Positions 18,575-63,241 of a stretch of DNA of 64,000 nt are shown here, piece after piece. Position 1 is the stretch's first letter. Every line of letters starts with the position of its first letter. The position numbers were made by a program, and so were the translations under genes. Origin of the DNA: Candidatus Daviesbacteria bacterium (GTDB lineage: Bacteria > Patescibacteriota > Microgenomatia > Daviesbacterales > UBA10151); NCBI GenBank assembly GCA_016195715.1, contig JACPZA010000031.1:60336-124335 (forward strand). The letters are read 5' to 3'. The notes below the pieces were generated by a model, which worked only from the letters and a program-made list of their open reading frames with translations, searched no databases and had not been told where the DNA came from.

Positions 18575-19881
18575 CCAAAAACTTTTTCTACAGCTGCATT
18601 AAATTTTCTTCCCCTATCAAATTCATTTTGGAAAAAATTAAAAGAGGTGGCACCAGGAGCAAAGACTATTATATCTTTTGATTTGGCATGTTTTTTTACA
18701 TCACTTAGCAATCTTTCCAAATTATCATAAGTACCCTCTACTTTTTTTCCATCTCTTAGATATTTTTTTATTTGATCAGTTGCAGTTCCATCAATAAAGA
18801 ACACCAGCTTGGCTGTTTTATCTATCTGACTTGCAAAATCTTTATAATCTAAACCTTTATCTAAACCCCCAGCAATTAAAATACAGTTAGGAAAACTTTT
18901 AAGCGCCTCAATTGCCGGAACTGGATTAGTTGCAGCTGAATCATTATAAATTTTTAAACCATTAACTTCTTTAACTAGTTGTAGCCTAAACTCTACACCT
19001 TTGAATTGCTTGACAGCTTCTAGAGCTTTTTTTTGATTAACCCCTAAAGTTTTAAGAACAGCTAAAGCTGCTGCAATATTATTTAAATTGTGACCCCCTT
19101 TAATAGTTGGAGAAAAATCAGCTGGCAAATCATCCTTATCAAAAAAAATAGGTTTAGCTTTTAATCCAACTAAAAAATCTTTAGAAATTGTAACTTGATC
19201 ATTTTTCCAAAGAAATAAATAATCAAATTTTCTTTGATATTTGGCAATAATTTTTTTTGAATAAATATAGTCTTGCATAGATTGATAATAATCCAGATGA
19301 TCAGGATAAATATTAGTTATTACTGCCCATTTTGGAGAAAGTTGGTGTTCATCAAAGCTTTCCAGCTGAAAAGAAGATAGCTCAAGAACTACTAAATGAT
19401 TTGGTTTTAAATATTCAACAGTATCTAAAACACTCTTACCAATATTTCCTGCAAATAAAACTTTCTTGCCTGCAGTTTTTAAGATCTCATAAATCAGTGA
19501 AGAAGTTGTGGATTTGCCCTTTGTACCAGTAACTCCAATAATTTGGGATGGCTTAATAAATTGCAAAAAAATTCCCATGTCCATCTCAACTTGCTTACCC
19601 TTTTCTTTAGCGTATCTTAGGAAGGGATTATTTGGTGTCAGTTTGGGATTTCTAATTATTAAATCTGCCCAATCAATATCTTCATTTTTATGCTCACCTA
19701 AATGATATTTGATATTTTTAAACTGTTTTAATTGATCAAGTGAAGGTTTTAGTTGCTCTTTTGTTTTTAAATCAGTCACTAAAACTAAAGCTCCAGCTTT
19801 GGCAAAAAATTTGGCAGATCCAACTCCACCTTGATTTAAGCCTAAACCTAGAATTAGTACCTTAGTGTTTTTATAATTCAT
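18571..19881 (-). CDS. murD: UDP-N-acetylmuramoylalanine--D-glutamate ligase
   Basis: The Mur ligase P-loop GVTGTKGKSTT is present, with the N-terminal Rossmann motif VLILGLGLNQGGVGSAKFF. The stop overlaps the ddl start. Confidence 0.85.
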   Translation of the reverse strand: MNYKNTKVLILGLGLNQGGVGSAKFFAKAGALVLVTDLKTKEQLKPSLDQLKQFKNIKYHLGEHKNEDIDWADLIIRNPKLTPNNPFLRYAKEKGKQVEMDMGIFLQFIKPSQIIGVTGTKGKSTTSSLIYEILKTAGKKVLFAGNIGKSVLDTVEYLKPNHLVVLELSSFQLESFDEHQLSPKWAVITNIYPDHLDYYQSMQDYIYSKKIIAKYQRKFDYLFLWKNDQVTISKDFLVGLKAKPIFFDKDDLPADFSPTIKGGHNLNNIAAALAVLKTLGVNQKKALEAVKQFKGVEFRLQLVKEVNGLKIYNDSAATNPVPAIEALKSFPNCILIAGGLDKGLDYKDFASQIDKTAKLVFFIDGTATDQIKKYLRDGKKVEGTYDNLERLLSDVKKHAKSKDIIVFAPGATSFNFFQNEFDRGRKFNAAVEKVFG

Positions 19882-47585: not shown

Positions 47586-48263
47586 ATGGAAAGATCAGCT
47601 GAATATTTAAATTCTTTCGCTAGGGCAAGTACTGAGTCTTTTGTTAACGTGCCAGAAGATACTACGAGTTGGAAAGAATATGCCAAACAAAGGCTTGATT
47701 CTCTTAATCAACAAAGAGAAGAAACTAAAGAACACACAGGCAAAGAGTATAAAAGGGTCCGCTCAAATGCTTATAGAAGGATCAGATACTGGGAAACTAA
47801 ATGGCGCGATCTTTTGACAGACTTAGAATCAACTATACCAGCTTCAAGAAATAGTGGGATTTCAATTCAAGAAACTTCAAATGAGAAGGCTCTTATGCTG
47901 GAACAAAAGACTCAGATTCCTCAGAAAAGAAGATCTAGAGATTTAGCCATGAGCGCTTTAATTGATTTTGTTAATCAGCGAAAAGAGATTGTCGCACAGT
48001 GGGCTCCTCAGCCATTTGAAAGCGATGGTGTTGTTTCGCAACCAAAACCTTTTAATACAAGAAGATTAGGACCAGGAACTCTAGCTAGACTATTTAGAAA
48101 TAGATTGCCCGAATGGAGAGAAAATACTGATGGGATTAGTCCATTTATTGACGAACTTTATCTGCAAAGACCTACAGTTCCTCAGCCTATTAGACAATTA
48201 GGAAGACTTATTGCTACAGGATTAGAAGTTACTCGTCAACAACCCATAAGCAAAGCTTCTTAA
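47586..48263 (+). CDS. Hypothetical protein (Arg/Glu-rich, GC-elevated)
   Basis: A 225-aa ORF in a locally GC-elevated (~43%) segment, with no recognisable motifs. Confidence 0.35.
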   Translation: MERSAEYLNSFARASTESFVNVPEDTTSWKEYAKQRLDSLNQQREETKEHTGKEYKRVRSNAYRRIRYWETKWRDLLTDLESTIPASRNSGISIQETSNEKALMLEQKTQIPQKRRSRDLAMSALIDFVNQRKEIVAQWAPQPFESDGVVSQPKPFNTRRLGPGTLARLFRNRLPEWRENTDGISPFIDELYLQRPTVPQPIRQLGRLIATGLEVTRQQPISKAS

Positions 48264-48435
48264 ATTTATCTGCTATAAAAAAGGGGTAAAAGAGAAAAAA
48301 CAATTAGAGAAATTGTGCCAACAGCAGTAATTATTATCCAAACCCATTTATATTTTTTAGATATATTATCCATAAATCAATTTTAACACAAAGTTTAGTC
48401 TTGTCAGTTCTTTAAGCAAGCAGTATATTATTTTC

Positions 48436-48744
48436 ATGGCTCAAGGATTCCCTGAGATGAGTGGTAGTAGAGTTTTTGTAGATGCGCTTGCTGCAGCTTA
48501 TAGAGGTGAAAGAATGTTTGGACCTCTTCAGAGGAGAAGTAAACCACCATTCATTAGGTTAAACTCTCACCAAATTGAACAAATTGCTGGCTTTGTAGGA
48601 ACCATTACTGCTTTATCTCTAGTAGCAAAACATCCAAATAAAGATAGGCTAGAATTTTTAATACCCAGAGTTGTTGAAGGTTGGAATGTAGGTGTTTATG
48701 CTGCTAGAACAATCGAAGGATTAATGTACCCACCTACTACTTAG
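48436..48744 (+). CDS. Hypothetical protein
   Basis: A 102-aa ORF in the same GC-elevated segment. Confidence 0.3.
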   Translation: MAQGFPEMSGSRVFVDALAAAYRGERMFGPLQRRSKPPFIRLNSHQIEQIAGFVGTITALSLVAKHPNKDRLEFLIPRVVEGWNVGVYAARTIEGLMYPPTT

Positions 48745-49843
48745 AAGTTAATTTTTCAATCTCTTGCAAAGCTGCTTGCCTTTTGGGATCTTCAAAATAC
48801 TTTCTAGCTGGTTCAAGTTTTTTTATTAACCATTCAGCAACAGCTAACTTTAAATCTTGAGGATGAAGTTTTTTCTCTGCATAATCTTTTTCTAAATCTT
48901 GATAAGAATTATAACTTAAATCCCCTCCCCATTTTGGATCCCTTTTAATAGTAAAAGTAGTGTTTTCTTCATAAAAAATTAAATGCTTAACCCAGTCTAA
49001 AATAGGGTTAAATTCTATCACTCCTTCTGGAGCATAGGCACCATTGATTTTTCTTTTGATAGTCTCAGAATCATCATGGATAAAAATAGCAGAATCAGGT
49101 TTGGACTTGCTCATTTTTGCAGCTTCTAAATCCATAACTTTTTTGCCAGTTTCTGAGTCGTCAACTAAAATAGGAGGTAAAAGTCCTTGCAATAAATGAG
49201 TATGAATAGCTATTGGTTTTTGGTAACCTAATTCAACTGCGCAGTCTCTGGCAACAATATGAACATTTCTTTGATCAGTTCCAGCATGAGCAATATTAAT
49301 TCCCATCATAAAAATATCTGCAGACTGCATTGCTGGATAAATCAACATAGCAGAATCAGTTACCTCAGCCTCTTTTCTGCCCATAATAGTAGTACTTCTG
49401 AGCATTCTAGATAAGGTTGTGGCTTTAGAGACCCTTACCACTGTTGCCCAATAATCTAATCCTAGCTTTTGATAAAGTTCACTGCCCAAAACAAAATTAA
49501 TTTTTTCAGGATCTGCTCCAACACAAAGAGCGCTAGCTTTAAATGCTTCCATTAAATAATTTTTGCCAACTTTGGTAATAGTTTCTAGTTCGCCATCTAA
49601 TTTTTTATTTAACCAAGCGTGCCAGTCAGCCAAGAAAACCGTCACCTCTACTCCAGCTTCTTGCAGGTCTTTAATTTTCATTAAAGTATACAGACCTTGA
49701 CCAATATGCAAAATTCCTGAAACTTCATAACCAATATAATGTTTTAAAGGGGTTCCAGAATCTATTAAAGCTTTTAGTTCTTCTTCAGTTAAAACTTCTT
49801 CTAGATTTCTGGTTATTAATTTAATTTTTTCTTCAGTTGTCAT
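48737..49843 (-). CDS. tyrS: Tyrosine--tRNA ligase, archaeal/eukaryotic type (class Ic; TrpRS not fully excluded)
   Basis: A HIGH-like motif (GILHIGQG), an ADWHA motif (archaeal TyrRS has ADLHAYLN), YPAMQSADI...GTDQRNVHIVARD, and KMSKS followed by ..KRKINGAYAPEG (compare archaeal TyrRS KKAYCPAG). Confidence 0.65.
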   Translation of the reverse strand: MTTEEKIKLITRNLEEVLTEEELKALIDSGTPLKHYIGYEVSGILHIGQGLYTLMKIKDLQEAGVEVTVFLADWHAWLNKKLDGELETITKVGKNYLMEAFKASALCVGADPEKINFVLGSELYQKLGLDYWATVVRVSKATTLSRMLRSTTIMGRKEAEVTDSAMLIYPAMQSADIFMMGINIAHAGTDQRNVHIVARDCAVELGYQKPIAIHTHLLQGLLPPILVDDSETGKKVMDLEAAKMSKSKPDSAIFIHDDSETIKRKINGAYAPEGVIEFNPILDWVKHLIFYEENTTFTIKRDPKWGGDLSYNSYQDLEKDYAEKKLHPQDLKLAVAEWLIKKLEPARKYFEDPKRQAALQEIEKLTSK

Positions 49844-49935
49844 AAATTTTAGCTAATAAAATGTAACATAAATTTTTCCTGGGGTACAGTTGCTAGTGCA
49901 CTTCCAAAAGTACCCCAAGAAGGTAATACTCAGGA

Positions 49936-50259
49936 TCAGCCATTTTGTTCTTGGTTTGTCTTGATTAACCTGAGAACTCTTCTACCTGCGTCAAATGCTA
50001 AAGCAGCACTTAAACTTGTTAAAAGAAAAGCTGTAGTTATTGGTGAAAATCCCAAATCTAGACCTTCCTGTACAAGTTTTCCAGGTTGTAAACCCAACCA
50101 ATTTCTCTCACCAGTGATCATAGTCTGTAAATGCTCAGTTCTGCCGCTAGCTAAATCATTAGTAAGGTTAAAAAAGTCTGGTTCACATGCTCCAACGACC
50201 CCTTCTCCTAGCGCAATTGCTGCTTCAGCTGCGATATCAGATTTATTTTTACTTTCCAT
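49936..50259 (-). CDS. Small protein directly downstream of T-box leader; weak Asp23/Gls24 (DUF322)-like N-terminus
   Basis: A strong SD (AAAGGAGGUGA) lies 6 nt upstream of the ATG at 50259. The N-terminus KSDIAAEAAIALGEGVVGA..LTNDLASG resembles the Asp23 family motif. Confidence 0.35.
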   Translation of the reverse strand: MESKNKSDIAAEAAIALGEGVVGACEPDFFNLTNDLASGRTEHLQTMITGERNWLGLQPGKLVQEGLDLGFSPITTAFLLTSLSAALAFDAGRRVLRLIKTNQEQNG

Positions 50260-50289
50260 TATTCTCACCTCCTTTTAGGGCTAAATTTT

Positions 50290-50624
50290 TAACAAAAAAA
50301 CCCTTGTCTGATTACCAAAATTGATAAACAGACAAGGGCCAACAAAAATGGCGTTACCACCTTGTATTTAAATCTATTAAAAAACAGGCCGTGTCGCCTG
50401 TTAACTTAAAGATTTCTTTAAGTGCTCCGATTATTCGACACACTCTTTTCGCTATTACGGTGCTGCCCGGCATGCCTTAATTTGAGTTCTCATTTCAGGG
50501 TGCAACTCAGGAGGGTAATTCAAAATAAACTTTTCGCTAAGCTTTCACCAACCGCTTAGTCTCTTTTGTCTACCAGTTTACTTCTACTCTTTCTCCTTCA
50601 ACGTCTTTCAAATATTAAATTGTA
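50290..50624 (-). promoter_or_regulatory. T-box riboswitch leader, tyrosine-specific (specifier UAC, discriminator-reading bulge UGGU)
   Basis: Minus-strand RNA shows AGAG/AGUA boxes and a GGUGA distal motif. The candidate specifier is GAA-UUAC-C. The T-box sequence AAGGUGGUAACGCC matches 10/12 of GGUGGNACCGCG. The antiterminator is ACAAGG / 7-nt bulge UGGUAAC / GCCA-loop-UGGC / CCUUGU, overlapping the 5' half of the terminator. Confidence 0.6.
50294..50338 (-). terminator. Rho-independent terminator (T-box leader terminator)
   Basis: The minus strand reads CCCUUGUCUG-(18 nt loop)-CAGACAAGGG followed by UUUUUUU. Confidence 0.65.
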
Positions 50625-50630
50625 AAATTT

Positions 50631-50659
50631 ATTATATCACAACTCTAAATTATGTCAAC
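50631..50659 (-). promoter_or_regulatory. Consensus sigma70 promoter with extended -10 driving the T-box leader
   Basis: The minus strand reads TTGACA - 16 nt - TGaTATAAT. It sits immediately downstream of the stop of ORF 50666..51268. Confidence 0.55.
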
Positions 50660-50665
50660 TATAGG

Positions 50666-51268
50666 TTACGGCGATTCTGAAAACATTTGTGAAGATCTTC
50701 TTGGGCGGGTGTGTGGAGGCATTACCAAAAAGTATTCTTCCCAGCTAACCATATTAGCGGCCATCCATCTAATTCCTCCCCAAAGCAGTCTAAAGCTTTC
50801 TATTGAAGGGTTACGAGCATAATCTTCTGCAGATATACTAATACCAAAATCCTTGTAAAAGAACCCTAACGTTAAACTTCGGGAATCTTGGCCAAGTGGT
50901 AAAGAACATCTTATTAATACTGAATCAGCGAGTCCTGTAGCTATCCCTCCTGCACTTAACTCAACTCGTGGATTAAAAGCTGACAGTTCTTCTTCCGGTT
51001 CCGCAACTAGTGTAGCAACACCAAGTTGTGAAGGTTTACGAATAACATATGCTCCAATTACTCTGGAATATTTCTTAAGTAACTCTCTACCAACAATTCG
51101 AAATGATTCTGCTAAAGTTTGAGGATCAATGCCTACTAAATTCATCAAATCTTCTGGATCATGAAATAAATCTTCCGGTGTATCAGTAATTCTTCGAAGA
51201 TTTCCTCTTGCTTGTTCTAATAGTAGTCTTTCTTTTCGGGAAAGTTTCCTTTCTTTTCTTTCAACCAT
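50666..51268 (-). CDS. Hypothetical protein (GC-elevated)
   Basis: A 200-aa ORF with ~48% GC locally and no recognisable motifs. Confidence 0.3.
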   Translation of the reverse strand: MVERKERKLSRKERLLLEQARGNLRRITDTPEDLFHDPEDLMNLVGIDPQTLAESFRIVGRELLKKYSRVIGAYVIRKPSQLGVATLVAEPEEELSAFNPRVELSAGGIATGLADSVLIRCSLPLGQDSRSLTLGFFYKDFGISISAEDYARNPSIESFRLLWGGIRWMAANMVSWEEYFLVMPPHTRPRRSSQMFSESP

Positions 51269-51369
51269 AGATTTAAAATTGTAACAGAGGTAGTTCTTAA
51301 AATCAACCTATAGTTAACCACACGAACTGATTGACTCAAGTTAAGCTTATTCAGTAAAATATTCTTGTT

Positions 51370-55927: not shown

Positions 55928-57738
<1,811 letters not shown>

Positions 57739-58092
57739 AACTATTCCTATAAAAGCATCTTGCCCTCTTAAGCCTCCTGGTGCAAAATGCCAAGCAAAAT
57801 GATAGTTACCATAAGTGGTTCCTTGATCTCCTAAAAGAGCAAAATGAATACATTCAGGAAAAGGGTTCCATGTTATTGCTCCAACAGCGCTTGCTGTCTT
57901 ATCCCTCTTTCTATAAGTGACTGAATTTTGGTCATATATCCACCAAAAACTAAATTTCCAGGAGCAAAAACTCTCTCAACTAACTCCCTATTTTGACTCA
58001 TGTGAAGAATTATATCTTATTAAGTTAGCGCCAGCAAACTATAGGTTGGAGTTTGCGCTTTTGGCAGACAAAATTCAATCCTTCAGCTATGC

Positions 58093-58362
58093 TCATTTTT
58101 TGTAAACTTCATCATGGGTGCCTAGTTTAAAAAAATAGAAATCACCATTCTCTGTATAAAGCATTCGGTAGCCTTTATCTATTGAAATACTCCAGGTATT
58201 TTTTACTTCTCTTGTGATCTTGTGCAAACGTAAGGATTTATGCCGAGGATTTTGCTTGAATAATTCTAACTGTTTTTGGATTTTATCAAATAATTTAATA
58301 TCTCTCCTCTGAAGTATCTGTAGCTTTTTATGAAAGTCAGGACTAAATTTAATGGATTTCAC
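58093..58362 (-). CDS. Type II toxin, RelE/ParE superfamily (YafQ/RelE-like mRNA interferase)
   Basis: 89 aa, containing ..KSLRLHKITREVKNTWSISIDKGYRMLYTENGDFYFFKLGTHDEVYKK. It overlaps the upstream small gene by 4 nt. Confidence 0.55.
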   Translation of the reverse strand: MKSIKFSPDFHKKLQILQRRDIKLFDKIQKQLELFKQNPRHKSLRLHKITREVKNTWSISIDKGYRMLYTENGDFYFFKLGTHDEVYKK

Positions 58363-58649
58363 AAATTCTTGAAGAATTCGTCTATATCTTTAACCTCAAT
58401 TGCTTTATCCTTGTCCTTTAATGCCTTTTTATATGCCTTAATTGTACTGTCTGATGCTTCAAAGATTGGATAATCCATATCTTCTACATCTTTTAAAATT
58501 AAATGTTTAACATAACTTGCTAAAGGCAAGCCAAACTTACTCGCCTTACTTTCAAGGAAATCTTTTAAAGCAACTGGTAGGTTAATTTTAATTTGGGTTT
58601 GTTGGGTAATCATAAATAATATTTTATCACCAATTCCAGGACTTTTCAA
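58359..58649 (-). CDS. Antitoxin, ribbon-helix-helix-like
   Basis: 96 aa, with IKINLPVALKDFLESKASKFGLPLASYVKHLI (beta-strand followed by two helices). It is translationally coupled to the toxin. Confidence 0.45.
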   Translation of the reverse strand: MKSPGIGDKILFMITQQTQIKINLPVALKDFLESKASKFGLPLASYVKHLILKDVEDMDYPIFEASDSTIKAYKKALKDKDKAIEVKDIDEFFKNL

Positions 58650-58718
58650 GGACTAAATTAATCTTTAATCATTTTTATCAACATCTCAGGAATTGGTCTG
58701 CAGGCACAAAATATTGAA

Positions 58719-59078
58719 TTAGTTTATTTCTTCAAAGTTGCCATCTAAGTGTAAATAATAAGTTTCTACTGCTATATCAGGATATTTTTCTTTAATTTTA
58801 TCTGCAGCTGTTTTTAGATCTTCAGCATGCTTTTCTGGCGTTCCCTCTTCTCCATAAGCTCCACAATCTTCATGGTTAACTAAAACTATCTTATGAATAT
58901 CATGTAAACGCTTAGAAATTTCAATTTGTTTAAAAATATTTTCAAAATCTTTAACTCCTCCAGCCAAAGCCACTCTATCAAAAGTTTTTGGTTGAAAATA
59001 TTTTGCAATCCATTGATTGATAAAATCCTGAAAGCGAAAATCAATACAAGTTACTACTAATCCTTCACAGCTGTGCAT
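58719..59078 (-). CDS. Short beta-class carbonic anhydrase-like protein
   Basis: The zinc-ligand motifs CxDxR (VVTCIDFR) and HxxCG (VNHEDCGAYG) are present. At 119 aa it is shorter than typical beta-CAs. Confidence 0.45.
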   Translation of the reverse strand: MHSCEGLVVTCIDFRFQDFINQWIAKYFQPKTFDRVALAGGVKDFENIFKQIEISKRLHDIHKIVLVNHEDCGAYGEEGTPEKHAEDLKTAADKIKEKYPDIAVETYYLHLDGNFEEIN

Positions 59079-59167
59079 ATTAAAGCTGATAATATAATAT
59101 CTTTATTTTTCTGACAAGGTTACAAGTAAAGTAACTCATTAGAGTATTTAAGAATGCTATAATTGGA

Positions 59168-60595: not shown

Positions 60596-60668
60596 CCAGA
60601 GTTGGCAGAGCGGTCGATGCGTCGGTCTGTAAAACCGATTTAGCCTGGTTCGACTCCAGGACTCTGGA
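60596..60668 (+). tRNA. tRNA-Tyr (anticodon GUA), class I (short variable arm), C1:G72, A73, CCA not encoded
   Basis: Cloverleaf: acceptor CCAGAGU/ACUCUGG, D-arm GCAG..GG..UGC, anticodon stem UCGGU/ACCGA with loop CUGUAAA (U33, G34-U35-A36), 5-nt variable region, T-arm CCUGG-UUCGACU-CCAGG. A TATAAT lies ~25 nt upstream. Confidence 0.85.
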
Positions 60669-60712
60669 CTTAATTTAAAAAGTTCAGCCTCTTTTTGTTA
60701 TAATTTGCTTGT

Positions 60713-63241
60713 ATGCCACTTCGCCGTATTGTTAAAAGATCAGATTATTCCAATTTTGGTAAAGTTAAATTGCTCTCCAGTCTTTCAACAGGGCTTTTGG
60801 TAGCTATTTTAGTGTTTATTGTCTCAATAATTGGGGTGGTTGTTTTTTTTGCCACCCAAGTCCCCTCTCCAGAAGCTTTGCAAAATAGAGATATTGCTTC
60901 AGCCACCAAAATTTATGATCGAAACGGGGATTTACTCTATGATATTTTTCAAAACCAAAATCGCACACCCGTAAAGCTTTCAGATATGCCAGATTCAGTT
61001 AAAAAAGCCACCATTTCTATTGAGGATAAGGACTTTTATAAACACGGTGGTTTTTCAGTAACCGGCATTGCCAGAGCACTTTTTGAACTGGTTATTCATC
61101 GTCAAGTAGAAGGAGGAGGTTCCACCCTAACTCAACAGCTGGTTAAGAATGCGCTATTAACTTCTGATCAATCAGTTATTAGAAAAATTAAAGAACTGAT
61201 TTTATCTATTGAAGTCGAAAGATCATATACTAAGGATCAAATCTTAGAGTTTTATTTAAATGAAATTCCTTATGGTGGTACAGCCTATGGAATTGAGGCG
61301 GCAGCTAATTTATATTTTGGAAAGCACGCCAGTGAACTAGATTTAGCTGAATCAGCCCTGCTGGCTGGATTACCCCAGCGGCCCTCTGTTTATTCTCCTT
61401 ATGGCACTCATCCAGAGCTAGCTACAGAGCGCCAAAGTGAAGTTTTAAGAAGAATGGTTGAAGATGGGTATATTACTAAAGATCAATCAGATAAAGCTAA
61501 AGCTGAAAAATTAACTTATCGAACTGCTCAAAATGAGATCGGTTTTAAAGCGCCTCACTTTGTTTTATATGTCAAACAAAAATTAATTGAACAATACGGC
61601 GATAAATTAGTTGAGCAAGGAGGTTTAAAAGTCACAACCACTTTGGATTATGGTCTACAACAAAAAGTAGAAGATATTGTTAAAACTGAGGTAGACAAAC
61701 TCAAAGATTTTAATGTCGGAAATGGTGCAGCTGTAGTTATGAATCCCAAAAATGGCCAGATTTTATCAATGGTTGGATCAAAAGACTATTTTGCTAAAGA
61801 TTATGATGGCAATGTTAATGTGACACTTTCTCTAAGGCAACCAGGTTCAGCAACTAAACCGATCAATTATGCAGCTGGATTTATTAAAGGTTATACTCCA
61901 GCTTCAGTTTTAGTGGATGTAAAAACTGAATTTCCTGGTGGCGATAAACCCTCATATGTTCCAGTAAACTACGACGGACAATTTCATGGGCCTGTTCAAA
62001 TCCGATACGATCTTGGTAATTCTTATAATATTCCAGCTGTTAAAATGTTAGCTTTGGTAGGGGTAAAAAATGTTTTAGATTTGGGTTTTAGGATGGGTTT
62101 AACTACTTGGGAACCAACTGAGGATAATGTTAATTCAGTTGGTCTATCTTTAGTGTTAGGAGGTAGAGAAGTTCGATTGCTTGATCTAACCTCAGCTTAT
62201 TCTGTTTTTGCCAACAAGGGTAAGAAAAATGACCCGGTTTCAATTTTAAAGGTCTCAGATTCTAAGGGAAAAACTTTATATGAATATCATGATTCTGATG
62301 GGACTCAAATTATGGATGAGGGGATCGCTTTTTTGATTTCCAATATCTTAGCAGACAATGGAGCTAGATCTGCTGCTTTTGGTTCAAACTCAGTTCTAAA
62401 TGTTTCTGGAAGAACTGTATCAGTGAAGACTGGAACTACAGATCAAAAAAGGGATAATTGGGCGGTTGGCTATACCCCCTCAATAGTAACTGGAGTTTGG
62501 GTTGGTAACAATGATAATTCAGTTATGAATCCAGCTATCGCTTCTGGTGTTACTGGAGCATCCCCTATTTGGCAAAAAATCATGATTGCTGCACTTAAGG
62601 ATAAGCCAGATGAAAAGTTTGATCCACCATCTAACATTAGCTATATTGATATTGACGGACTAATGGGCGGTACGCCTAAGGATGGCTCCCCAACTCGCAA
62701 GGAATACTTTTTTAAAGGTACTGAGCCAACGACAGTTTCTAATACTTATCAACACCAAAAGGTCTGTAAAGTTAATAATCACCGATTAGCCAATGATGGT
62801 GAAGATGCAGAGGATAAAGATGTGATTGTGTTATCTGAAAGTGATCCAACTGGAGCAAATAAGTGGCAAGCAGGGATTGATCAGTGGGTGTTAACAGCTG
62901 CTGATTCTAGGTTAGTGGGTGCAACCAAAGGTTGTAACGGCATTCCAGGATTTAGTAGTGCCGGGACTCAGGGAGCAATAATTTCTATAGTTAATGTCAG
63001 CAACGGTGCCAATGTGCCAAGAGTGTTTGATGTACTTGCTAAAACTAACTCCCCATTTGGAGTTAAAAAAGTCACTTGGACAATAGACGGTGCAGTTAAA
63101 TCGACTCAAACTGGTGAACCATTTGCTTTGCATGTAGAATTCCCTGAAGGCGATAAGGGCTCACATACTATTTCTGCAACGCTGGAGGATAATAATGGTG
63201 GGAGTTTTTCTTCCACGATTGGAGTGACTGTAGCACTTTAA
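60713..63241 (+). CDS. Class A penicillin-binding protein (bifunctional transglycosylase/transpeptidase) with C-terminal extension
   Basis: GT51 motifs (EDKDFYKHGG, GGSTLTQQL, ..RKIKE..) and transpeptidase motifs SATKP, SYN and KTGTT are present. There is an N-terminal TM anchor. Confidence 0.9.
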   Translation: MPLRRIVKRSDYSNFGKVKLLSSLSTGLLVAILVFIVSIIGVVVFFATQVPSPEALQNRDIASATKIYDRNGDLLYDIFQNQNRTPVKLSDMPDSVKKATISIEDKDFYKHGGFSVTGIARALFELVIHRQVEGGGSTLTQQLVKNALLTSDQSVIRKIKELILSIEVERSYTKDQILEFYLNEIPYGGTAYGIEAAANLYFGKHASELDLAESALLAGLPQRPSVYSPYGTHPELATERQSEVLRRMVEDGYITKDQSDKAKAEKLTYRTAQNEIGFKAPHFVLYVKQKLIEQYGDKLVEQGGLKVTTTLDYGLQQKVEDIVKTEVDKLKDFNVGNGAAVVMNPKNGQILSMVGSKDYFAKDYDGNVNVTLSLRQPGSATKPINYAAGFIKGYTPASVLVDVKTEFPGGDKPSYVPVNYDGQFHGPVQIRYDLGNSYNIPAVKMLALVGVKNVLDLGFRMGLTTWEPTEDNVNSVGLSLVLGGREVRLLDLTSAYSVFANKGKKNDPVSILKVSDSKGKTLYEYHDSDGTQIMDEGIAFLISNILADNGARSAAFGSNSVLNVSGRTVSVKTGTTDQKRDNWAVGYTPSIVTGVWVGNNDNSVMNPAIASGVTGASPIWQKIMIAALKDKPDEKFDPPSNISYIDIDGLMGGTPKDGSPTRKEYFFKGTEPTTVSNTYQHQKVCKVNNHRLANDGEDAEDKDVIVLSESDPTGANKWQAGIDQWVLTAADSRLVGATKGCNGIPGFSSAGTQGAIISIVNVSNGANVPRVFDVLAKTNSPFGVKKVTWTIDGAVKSTQTGEPFALHVEFPEGDKGSHTISATLEDNNGGSFSSTIGVTVAL

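Follow-up and report, generated by a model that had tools for sequence, protein, structure and literature searches.

How does a bacterium come to charge its tyrosine tRNA with a synthetase of the archaeal kind, and how does a bacterial tRNA-sensing leader come to stand upstream of such an enzyme? The question is raised by a 64-kb stretch of DNA (the window, part of a contig of 128,664 bp) from Candidatus Daviesbacteria, a groundwater member of the Microgenomates within the candidate phyla radiation (CPR). The window carries a tRNA-Tyr gene (60596..60668, plus strand), a tyrosyl-tRNA synthetase gene, tyrS (48737..49843, minus strand), and a T-box leader (50331..50610, minus strand). We consider it very probable that a bacterial tyrosyl-tRNA synthetase (TyrRS) was displaced here by an archaeal-type enzyme, that the resident class II tRNATyr was adapted to the newcomer, and that the T-box was gained in a single species, together with a short open reading frame (ORF), orf107. 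The core of this phenomenon, an archaeal-type TyrRS with a C1:G72 tRNATyr, is already known for Daviesbacteria, because Mukai, Reynolds, Crnkovic and Soll (2017, Life 7:8, PMC5370408) reported archaea/eukarya-type TyrRS with C1-G72 tRNATyr in OD1, OP11, WS6 and WWE3, and named Daviesbacteria, in the legend to their Figure 2, among the major bacterial groups with such an enzyme. That paper makes no mention of a T-box, riboswitch or leader, and our literature search found no report linking T-boxes to CPR, Patescibacteria or Microgenomates, nor one of a T-box preceding an archaeal-type tyrS.

The synthetase is an archaeal/eukaryal-type TyrRS of 368 amino acids without a C-terminal S4-like domain; its protein sequence is identical (100%) to one deposited as a tyrosine--tRNA ligase of Ca. 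Daviesbacteria. A reading of the window made from its letters alone (hereafter the sequence-only reading) had called tyrS archaeal-type on the strength of the motifs ADWHA and KMSKS..AYAPEG, and this assignment holds: ADWHA (residues 72-76), KMSKS (243-247) and AYAPEG (269-274) are all present, together with HIGQ (46-49), and the archaeal-type NCBIfam model NF006330/PRK08560 scores 426.8 bits against a cutoff of 220, while the bacterial tyrS model TIGR00234 scores 112.7 bits, just below its cutoff of 113.8. Pfam recognises PF00579 alone, the class Ic catalytic family, across residues 31-343, and no S4 domain was found. When the protein was searched against the PDB, the top four matches were 2cyc (about 370 bits), 7fg6 (334), 2cya (295) and 2cyb (238), of which 2cyc (from Pyrococcus), 2cya and 2cyb are archaeal TyrRS structures; the Methanocaldococcus jannaschii enzyme (1j1u) scored 194 bits and human cytoplasmic TyrRS 162 bits, while the best bacterial TyrRS, 1h3e, reached 47 bits over the Rossmann half only. 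Identity to M. jannaschii TyrRS is 41%. Residues R149 and D330, which correspond to R132 and D286 of the M. jannaschii enzyme, are invariant across the Daviesbacteria TyrRS clade; this is a sequence-level hint of a preference for C1:G72 and should be read as no more than that.

Relatives of this enzyme were sought by scanning one genome per species (GTDB) with conserved TyrRS peptides. The scan returned about 47 Daviesbacteria-like loci with TyrRS 59-79% identical to that of the window, after which the next matches were archaeal: Promethearchaeota (52%), Pacearchaeota (50%), Woesearchaeota (48%) and Micrarchaeota (42-48%), with Asgard and DPANN sequences spanning 41-52% overall. A single locus from Dojkabacteria (L063) has a TyrRS of 46% identity. 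In a neighbour-joining tree, drawn without bootstrap, the Daviesbacteria enzymes form a monophyletic clade nested among DPANN and Asgard sequences, and because of this nesting horizontal acquisition of the synthetase seems likely, the donor being DPANN- or Asgard-like. Horizontal transfer is also how Mukai et al. (PMC5370408) read the TyrRS of CPR bacteria. The phylogenetic placement therefore agrees with the part of the sequence-only reading that concerned the enzyme; that reading had supposed, however, a wholesale replacement of the tyrosine decoding module, and it is the synthetase alone that looks foreign.

The tRNA has a more complicated descent. It is the only tRNA that ARAGORN finds in the window (tRNA-Tyr(gta), 60596-60669(+)), and the Rfam tRNA model RF00005 matches positions 60596-60668 with 56.5 bits (E 1.6e-9). 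As a tRNA-Tyr(GUA) of 73 nt it can be segmented into the cloverleaf CCAGAGT-TG-GCA-GAGCGGTCGA-TGC-G-TCGGT-CTGTAAA-ACCGA-TTTAG-CCTGG-TTCGACT-CCAGG-ACTCTGG-A, in which C1:G72 closes the acceptor stem (CCAGAGT/ACTCTGG), A73 follows, and the variable region is 5 nt long (TTTAG). With its GUA anticodon it thus carries the whole archaeal/eukaryal tRNATyr identity set (C1:G72, A73, GUA and a short variable region of 4-5 nt), as had been noticed from the letters, whereas E. coli tyrT, our reference for contrast, has G1:C72 together with a 13-nt variable arm (V-arm). CCA is absent from the gene and must therefore be added after transcription. The body of the molecule does not point to archaeal descent, however, since its D-arm architecture is bacterial and its locus is orthologous to one that encodes a V-arm. 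The D-arm consists of a 3-bp stem and the loop GAGCGGTCGA, which resembles the D-loop of E. coli tyrT (GAGCGGCCAAA); a 3-bp stem with a loop of GAGCGGYCRA type is the bacterial class II style, unlike the D-arm of M. jannaschii tRNATyr, which has a stem of 4 bp.

What happened to the tRNA can be followed among relatives, four of which have a tRNATyr gene within 10 kb of tyrS and so could be compared with the window. All five tRNAs have C1:G72, A73 and a 3-bp D-stem, but they differ in the variable region, which is 5 nt in L023 and L040 as it is in the window, 13 nt in L037 and 14 nt in L046, the last two being V-arms. L046, a complete chromosome (CP066688.1) on a basal branch of the TyrRS clade (59% identity), thereby has a tRNATyr of 84 nt, yet its acceptor stem differs from that of the window tRNA at one position. 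A PBP1A-type penicillin-binding protein gene (60713..63241, plus strand; Pfam Transgly and Transpeptidase), a synteny anchor outside the tyrosine system, adjoins the tRNA in the window, L023, L040 and L046, with homologues 70-73% identical by tblastn, and the tRNA locus is therefore orthologous across Daviesbacteria; in L037 the tRNA adjoins atpC. Because the bacterial, class II-like D-arm is combined with a PBP1A locus held in common with V-arm-bearing C1:G72 relatives, we infer that the window tRNA is a resident bacterial tRNA remodelled in place, in which the 1:72 pair would have flipped first and the V-arm would have been lost later, within the clade. The occurrence of both forms at an orthologous locus within Daviesbacteria supports such a stepwise route. 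We know of no purpose that a V-arm would serve for a TyrRS without an S4 domain. Mukai et al. (PMC5370408) likewise derived the CPR molecules from bacterial tRNATyr on the grounds that many C1-G72 forms retain the V-arm, describing them as usually modified bacterial tRNATyr; they describe a V-arm-less form for one Roizmanbacteria genome. A series of C1:G72 tRNATyr with and without the V-arm inside one clade is a modest addition to that picture.

The T-box is the third element. Rfam model RF00230 matches 50331..50610 (minus strand) over its full length (positions 1-219 of 219), from Stem I through Stem II, IIA/B and Stem III to the antiterminator; the score, 97 bits (E 4.5e-20), exceeds the gathering score of 93, and the leader is of the transcription-termination type. 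Upstream lies a sigma-70-type promoter (50631..50658, minus strand) that agrees with the consensus at 12 of 12 positions: TTGACA, a 16-nt spacer and a TG-extended TATAAT (TTGACA-16-TGnTATAAT). The specifier is UAC (50517-50515, minus strand), in the context GAA-U-UAC-C ahead of a CUCC helix strand; this is the favoured tyrosine specifier, it stands at the canonical site, the position that TBDB uses, and tyrS lies downstream. The T-box bulge, UGGU (50359-50356, minus strand), is complementary to the A73-CCA end of the only tRNATyr in the window. Folding identifies an intrinsic terminator (50294..50338, minus strand; CCCUUGUCUG...CAGACAAGGG followed by U7) of -24.8 kcal/mol against -11.2 kcal/mol for the antiterminator; the 5' arm of the former overlaps the 3' arm of the latter (CCUUGU), making the two folds mutually exclusive, and the leader as a whole has a folding z-score of -4.39. 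These features argue for a leader that functions as a tRNATyr-sensing riboswitch. A T-box senses three parts of its tRNA ligand, namely anticodon, elbow and NCCA end, and does not read the 1:72 pair or the variable arm sequence-specifically; for that reason a T-box is compatible with a switched tyrosine identity and should work equally well on either side of the switch.

The leader does not adjoin tyrS. A distance of 487 nt separates its 3' end from the tyrS ATG further downstream, and the first ORF past the terminator is orf107 (49936..50259, minus strand; locus tag HY025_05745, a hypothetical protein of 107 amino acids), which starts with an ATG at 50259 behind a strong Shine-Dalgarno sequence (AAGGAGGTG). 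Between orf107 and tyrS is a spacer of 93 nt that carries a hairpin, GGGGTAC...GTACCCC. From the terminator to tyrS the minus strand has no promoter that scores at least 10/12, whereas in L081, a close relative, a promoter (TTGCTG-17-TATAAT) stands directly ahead of tyrS. Because the window has no good promoter in that place, unlike L081, leader, orf107 and tyrS are probably read as a single transcript. The small gene itself has no Pfam match and no homologue in 83 loci, and its sole match among 5.8 billion proteins is itself; as an orphan without homologues it was dropped as a lead to the origin of the T-box. It contains no tyrosine codons, which may be chance in a protein so short and would also fit a product made during tyrosine starvation.

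Comparison with L081, whose TyrRS is 91% identical, shows how local the T-box is. Nucleotide homology (blastn) breaks off at 51343, the end of atpB, and at 49844, the tyrS ATG, and between these points the window has 1,498 nt (49845..51342) that contain orf200 (200 amino acids, 50666-51268, minus strand), the promoter, the T-box and orf107, where L081 holds 572 nt. In most Daviesbacteria the gap before tyrS is shorter than 100 nt, and among about 50 other Daviesbacteria loci none turned up with a T-box in front of tyrS. The individual searches agree: Rfam gave none in eight loci at the gathering threshold and, in seven loci at an E-value threshold, a sole T-box in the Dojkabacteria locus L063 (45 bits); Rfam E-value scans and inspection revealed none in the Daviesbacteria loci with longer gaps; L084 and L085, the closest relatives, likewise showed none ahead of tyrS; an nhmmer search of 80 loci with the window leader matched only the leader of a trpE-like gene in L043, and nothing before any tyrS; and scans upstream of tyrS for motifs (GGGTGGTACCGCG-like, GGTGG.A) produced nothing credible in Daviesbacteria and a match in L063 only. 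A cruder heuristic, a helix followed by a T-run, was applied to all loci and discarded, as it returned mostly chance matches, and the one that recurred, in L004 and L007, precedes atpB and is not a T-box. The sequence-only reading had set a bacterial-style T-box on top of an archaeal-like pair. Its description of the element is borne out by the full-length match, by the fit of UGGU to A73 and by the probable tyrS transcription unit. The leader is not adjacent to tyrS, however, nor is it an ancestral layer that survived on top of the pair, because it lies in a species-specific segment and none was found before tyrS in the other loci. Its restriction to one species indicates instead that it was probably gained recently.

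Two further leaders bear on where it came from. In L043, another Daviesbacterium, a trpE-like, chorismate-binding gene of 458 amino acids is preceded by a T-box-like leader (18955-19300) that folds with z -5.9; its bulge is UGGC, its terminator is strong, its Stem I departs from the canonical form, and Rfam leaves it unreported at E<=0.01. This leader and that of the window have in common the promoter, the terminator and the stretches TTACAATTTAATA and TGTGTCGAA.A.TCGGAGCA, and because these stretches are idiosyncratic they suggest that the tyrosine leader was recruited from native Daviesbacteria stock and not retained from an ancestral bacterial tyrS. The other is in Dojkabacteria (WS6; L063, DAOOWV010000017.1, 9704-9900), where a short T-box (45 bits, E 8e-7, below the gathering score) stands directly before an archaeal-type tyrS; in it A comes after the UAC, and both UGGU and a terminator are present. 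Since L063 also has one, the pairing of a T-box with an archaeal-type tyrS would have arisen at least twice in CPR. A fuller history can be offered tentatively, with a little less than even confidence: a native leader of the L043 trpE family would have been duplicated or moved with the 1.5-kb segment after the synthetase swap, re-specified to UAC and UGGU, and placed before the foreign tyrS. As a separate observation, variable orphan ORFs without Pfam match (225, 102 and 200 amino acids; window 47586-48744 and 50666-51268) lie to either side of tyrS, and different orphans, of 116 and 461 amino acids, surround it in L081 (7152-9053), so that the locus looks like a hot spot of gene turnover.

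In proposing a mechanism we need to account for three changes. An archaeal-type TyrRS would have arrived horizontally, from a DPANN- or Asgard-like donor, and displaced the bacterial enzyme; the resident class II tRNATyr would then have adapted, by the flip of its first pair to C1:G72 and the later loss of its long variable arm, and the outcome would be a 73-nt tRNA whose body is bacterial and whose identity set is archaeal/eukaryal. In one species the tyrS unit would also have gained a T-box leader and would be co-transcribed with orf107. Under tyrosine limitation, uncharged tRNATyr(GUA) would dock on Stem I, with its anticodon paired to UAC and its elbow on the distal platform, and its A73-C-C-A end would pair with UGGU; the antiterminator would thereby be stabilised and RNA polymerase would read on into orf107 and tyrS. 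Charged tRNATyr would be unable to pair, so that the terminator would form and transcription would stop at the U-run.

Four other explanations have to be set against this one. That both genes are archaeal, the TyrRS and a class I tRNATyr having been imported wholesale in place of the bacterial pair, would explain why no archaeal identity feature (C1:G72, A73, 5-nt variable loop) is lacking from the window tRNA, and Mukai et al. (PMC5370408) do give 'bacterial or archaeal origins' for CPR tRNATyr and tRNATrp genes. We nevertheless find it improbable, as the D-arm, with its 3-bp stem and GAGCGG-type loop, is like that of E. coli tyrT and of the V-arm-bearing Daviesbacteria tRNAs and not of the 4-bp archaeal type, the 84-nt tRNA of L046 occupies the same PBP1A position with one acceptor-stem difference, and the tRNA and tyrS lie about 10.7 kb apart, not linked as a cassette. 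The sequence-only reading had looked to tRNATyr structures in related genomes for a test, and the V-arm and C1:G72 of L046 and L037, in the same neighbourhood, speak against import of the tRNA. Equally hard to credit is the possibility that the pair is an auxiliary one beside a class II tRNATyr with G1:C72 and its canonical bacterial TyrRS, in the manner of the double Trp systems of Beckwithbacteria. Such coexistence is documented for TrpRS-A (PMC5370408), and our evidence covers 64 kb of the genome, which also tells against our own account; yet about 47 species-level Daviesbacteria-like genomes have kept the archaeal-type tyrS, often in syntenic position and with 59-79% identity, and all tRNATyr seen in the clade, those with a V-arm included, have C1:G72 and would by the identity rules be expected to be charged poorly by a bacterial TyrRS. 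Nor do Mukai et al. (PMC5370408) report a bacterial TyrRS beside it in these groups.

Contamination deserves mention because CPR and DPANN genome bins are recognised to cross-contaminate (PMC5370408), so that an archaeal fragment might have been joined to bacterial DNA during assembly or binning. This is effectively refuted. The tyrosine loci are set among bacterial genes (recG, L32, the ATP synthase operon, PBP1A), with recG to one side of tyrS and the ATP synthase operon to the other, all on a single contig; L081 keeps this gene order at 83-85% nucleotide identity, the gene recurs in about 50 genomes from unrelated studies, and two independent Logan read assemblies (L086, L087) are 100% identical to the window over orf200, the T-box, orf107 and the start of tyrS. 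Groundwater records SRR12113409/10 also seem to be assemblies of this population. It is the synteny of L081, the recurrence in dozens of unrelated metagenome-assembled genomes (MAGs) and the two identical read assemblies that exclude it. The explanation with most to recommend it besides our own, though still unlikely, is that the T-box is a relic or controls orf107 only, tyrS being driven by an unrecognised promoter of its own. The hairpin-bearing spacer before tyrS would fit this, nearly all relatives express tyrS without a T-box, and the base after the specifier is C where T-boxes usually have a purine. A relic would hardly be expected, however, to keep a perfect promoter, a full-length Rfam match above threshold and an intact UGGU bulge and terminator; the UAC specifier corresponds to the amino acid of the only recognisable gene downstream; and no minus-strand promoter of at least 10/12 lies between the terminator and tyrS.

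Several of these points weigh also against displacement, adaptation and late gain of the T-box as a whole. The leader is separated from tyrS by orf107 and the 93-nt spacer, so that co-transcription is a matter of interpretation; the C after the specifier is atypical; and the T-box, present before tyrS in one of about 50 Daviesbacteria loci, has no covariation support of its own. The TyrRS tree is a quick neighbour-joining sketch, and transfer from archaea to bacteria is not proven by it, the reverse direction being possible according to Mukai et al. (PMC5370408).

Displacement of the synthetase followed by adaptation of the tRNA places the window within the phenomenon and lineage of Mukai et al. 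(PMC5370408), as it combines a CPR host, an archaea/eukarya-type TyrRS and a C1-G72 tRNATyr; what differs is the T-box, and the presence of V-arm-bearing and V-arm-less C1:G72 tRNAs at an orthologous locus inside Daviesbacteria. The leader has a close known analogue in the tyrS T-box of Bacillus subtilis (RF00230), with which it shares the Stem I features of the Rfam model, UAC, UGGU for A73, an overlapping antiterminator and terminator, and an aminoacyl-tRNA synthetase gene downstream. In the window, however, the ligand is a class I C1:G72 tRNATyr without V-arm and not a class II molecule, the enzyme is archaeal-type, an orphan ORF precedes tyrS, C follows the specifier and the host belongs to CPR. 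The TyrRS and tRNATyr of M. jannaschii (PDB 1J1U) resemble the window pair in the compact enzyme without S4 domain and in C1:G72, A73 and the short variable loop, but the D-arm of the window tRNA is bacterial, and whereas the M. jannaschii pair serves as an orthogonal pair for genetic-code expansion in E. coli, the window pair is presumed to be the only tyrosine system of its bacterial cell. The Dojkabacteria locus is a parallel case, in that a CPR host again has an archaeal-type tyrS and a T-box-like leader with UAC, UGGU and terminator; that leader is shorter, has no Stem II region, adjoins tyrS with no ORF between, and, core motifs apart, is unrelated in sequence to that of the window.

Some further observations concern the surroundings of these genes. 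In the window an insert of about 1.85 kb (57317-59167) separates atpD from atpC, and its genes all lie on the opposite strand: a RelE/ParE-like ORF of 89 amino acids (58093-58362) with an overlapping partner of 96 (58359-58649), a Cys/His-rich ORF of 119 (58719-59078) and an orphan of 157 (57265-57738). In a close relative (the JGI contig with P0004), genes of the 23S_rRNA_IVP family (PF05635) are interleaved in the ATP synthase operon. In L082 (11207-11674) a Trp_repressor-family gene (PF01371) lies directly downstream of the archaeal-type tyrS; trp repressor genes adjoin TrpRS-A operons (Mukai et al., PMC5370408). Finally, many of the MAG records that are clearly Daviesbacteria-like (L001-L006, L009, L011-L014 and others; CAY*/CAZ* TPA_asm), being syntenic and having a TyrRS of 65-79% identity, bear the title 'uncultured Gammaproteobacteria bacterium', an evident placeholder or mislabel.

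A switch of tyrosine identity in a bacterium bears on how fixed tRNA identity is across the domains and on the engineering of orthogonal pairs, a point that was made in 2017 for the lineage to which Daviesbacteria belong. The tRNA series within the clade, the T-box before an archaeal-type tyrS and the parallel in Dojkabacteria are modest additions that leave the established picture unchanged. Should the T-box indeed have been recruited after the swap, however, then nature itself would have rebuilt a bacterial riboswitch that senses tRNA around an archaeal-type synthetase and a class I tRNATyr with C1:G72. Such a case would demonstrate directly that T-box sensing is blind to the 1:72 pair and the V-arm, and would provide a ready-made regulatory part for orthogonal pairs of the M. 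jannaschii type.

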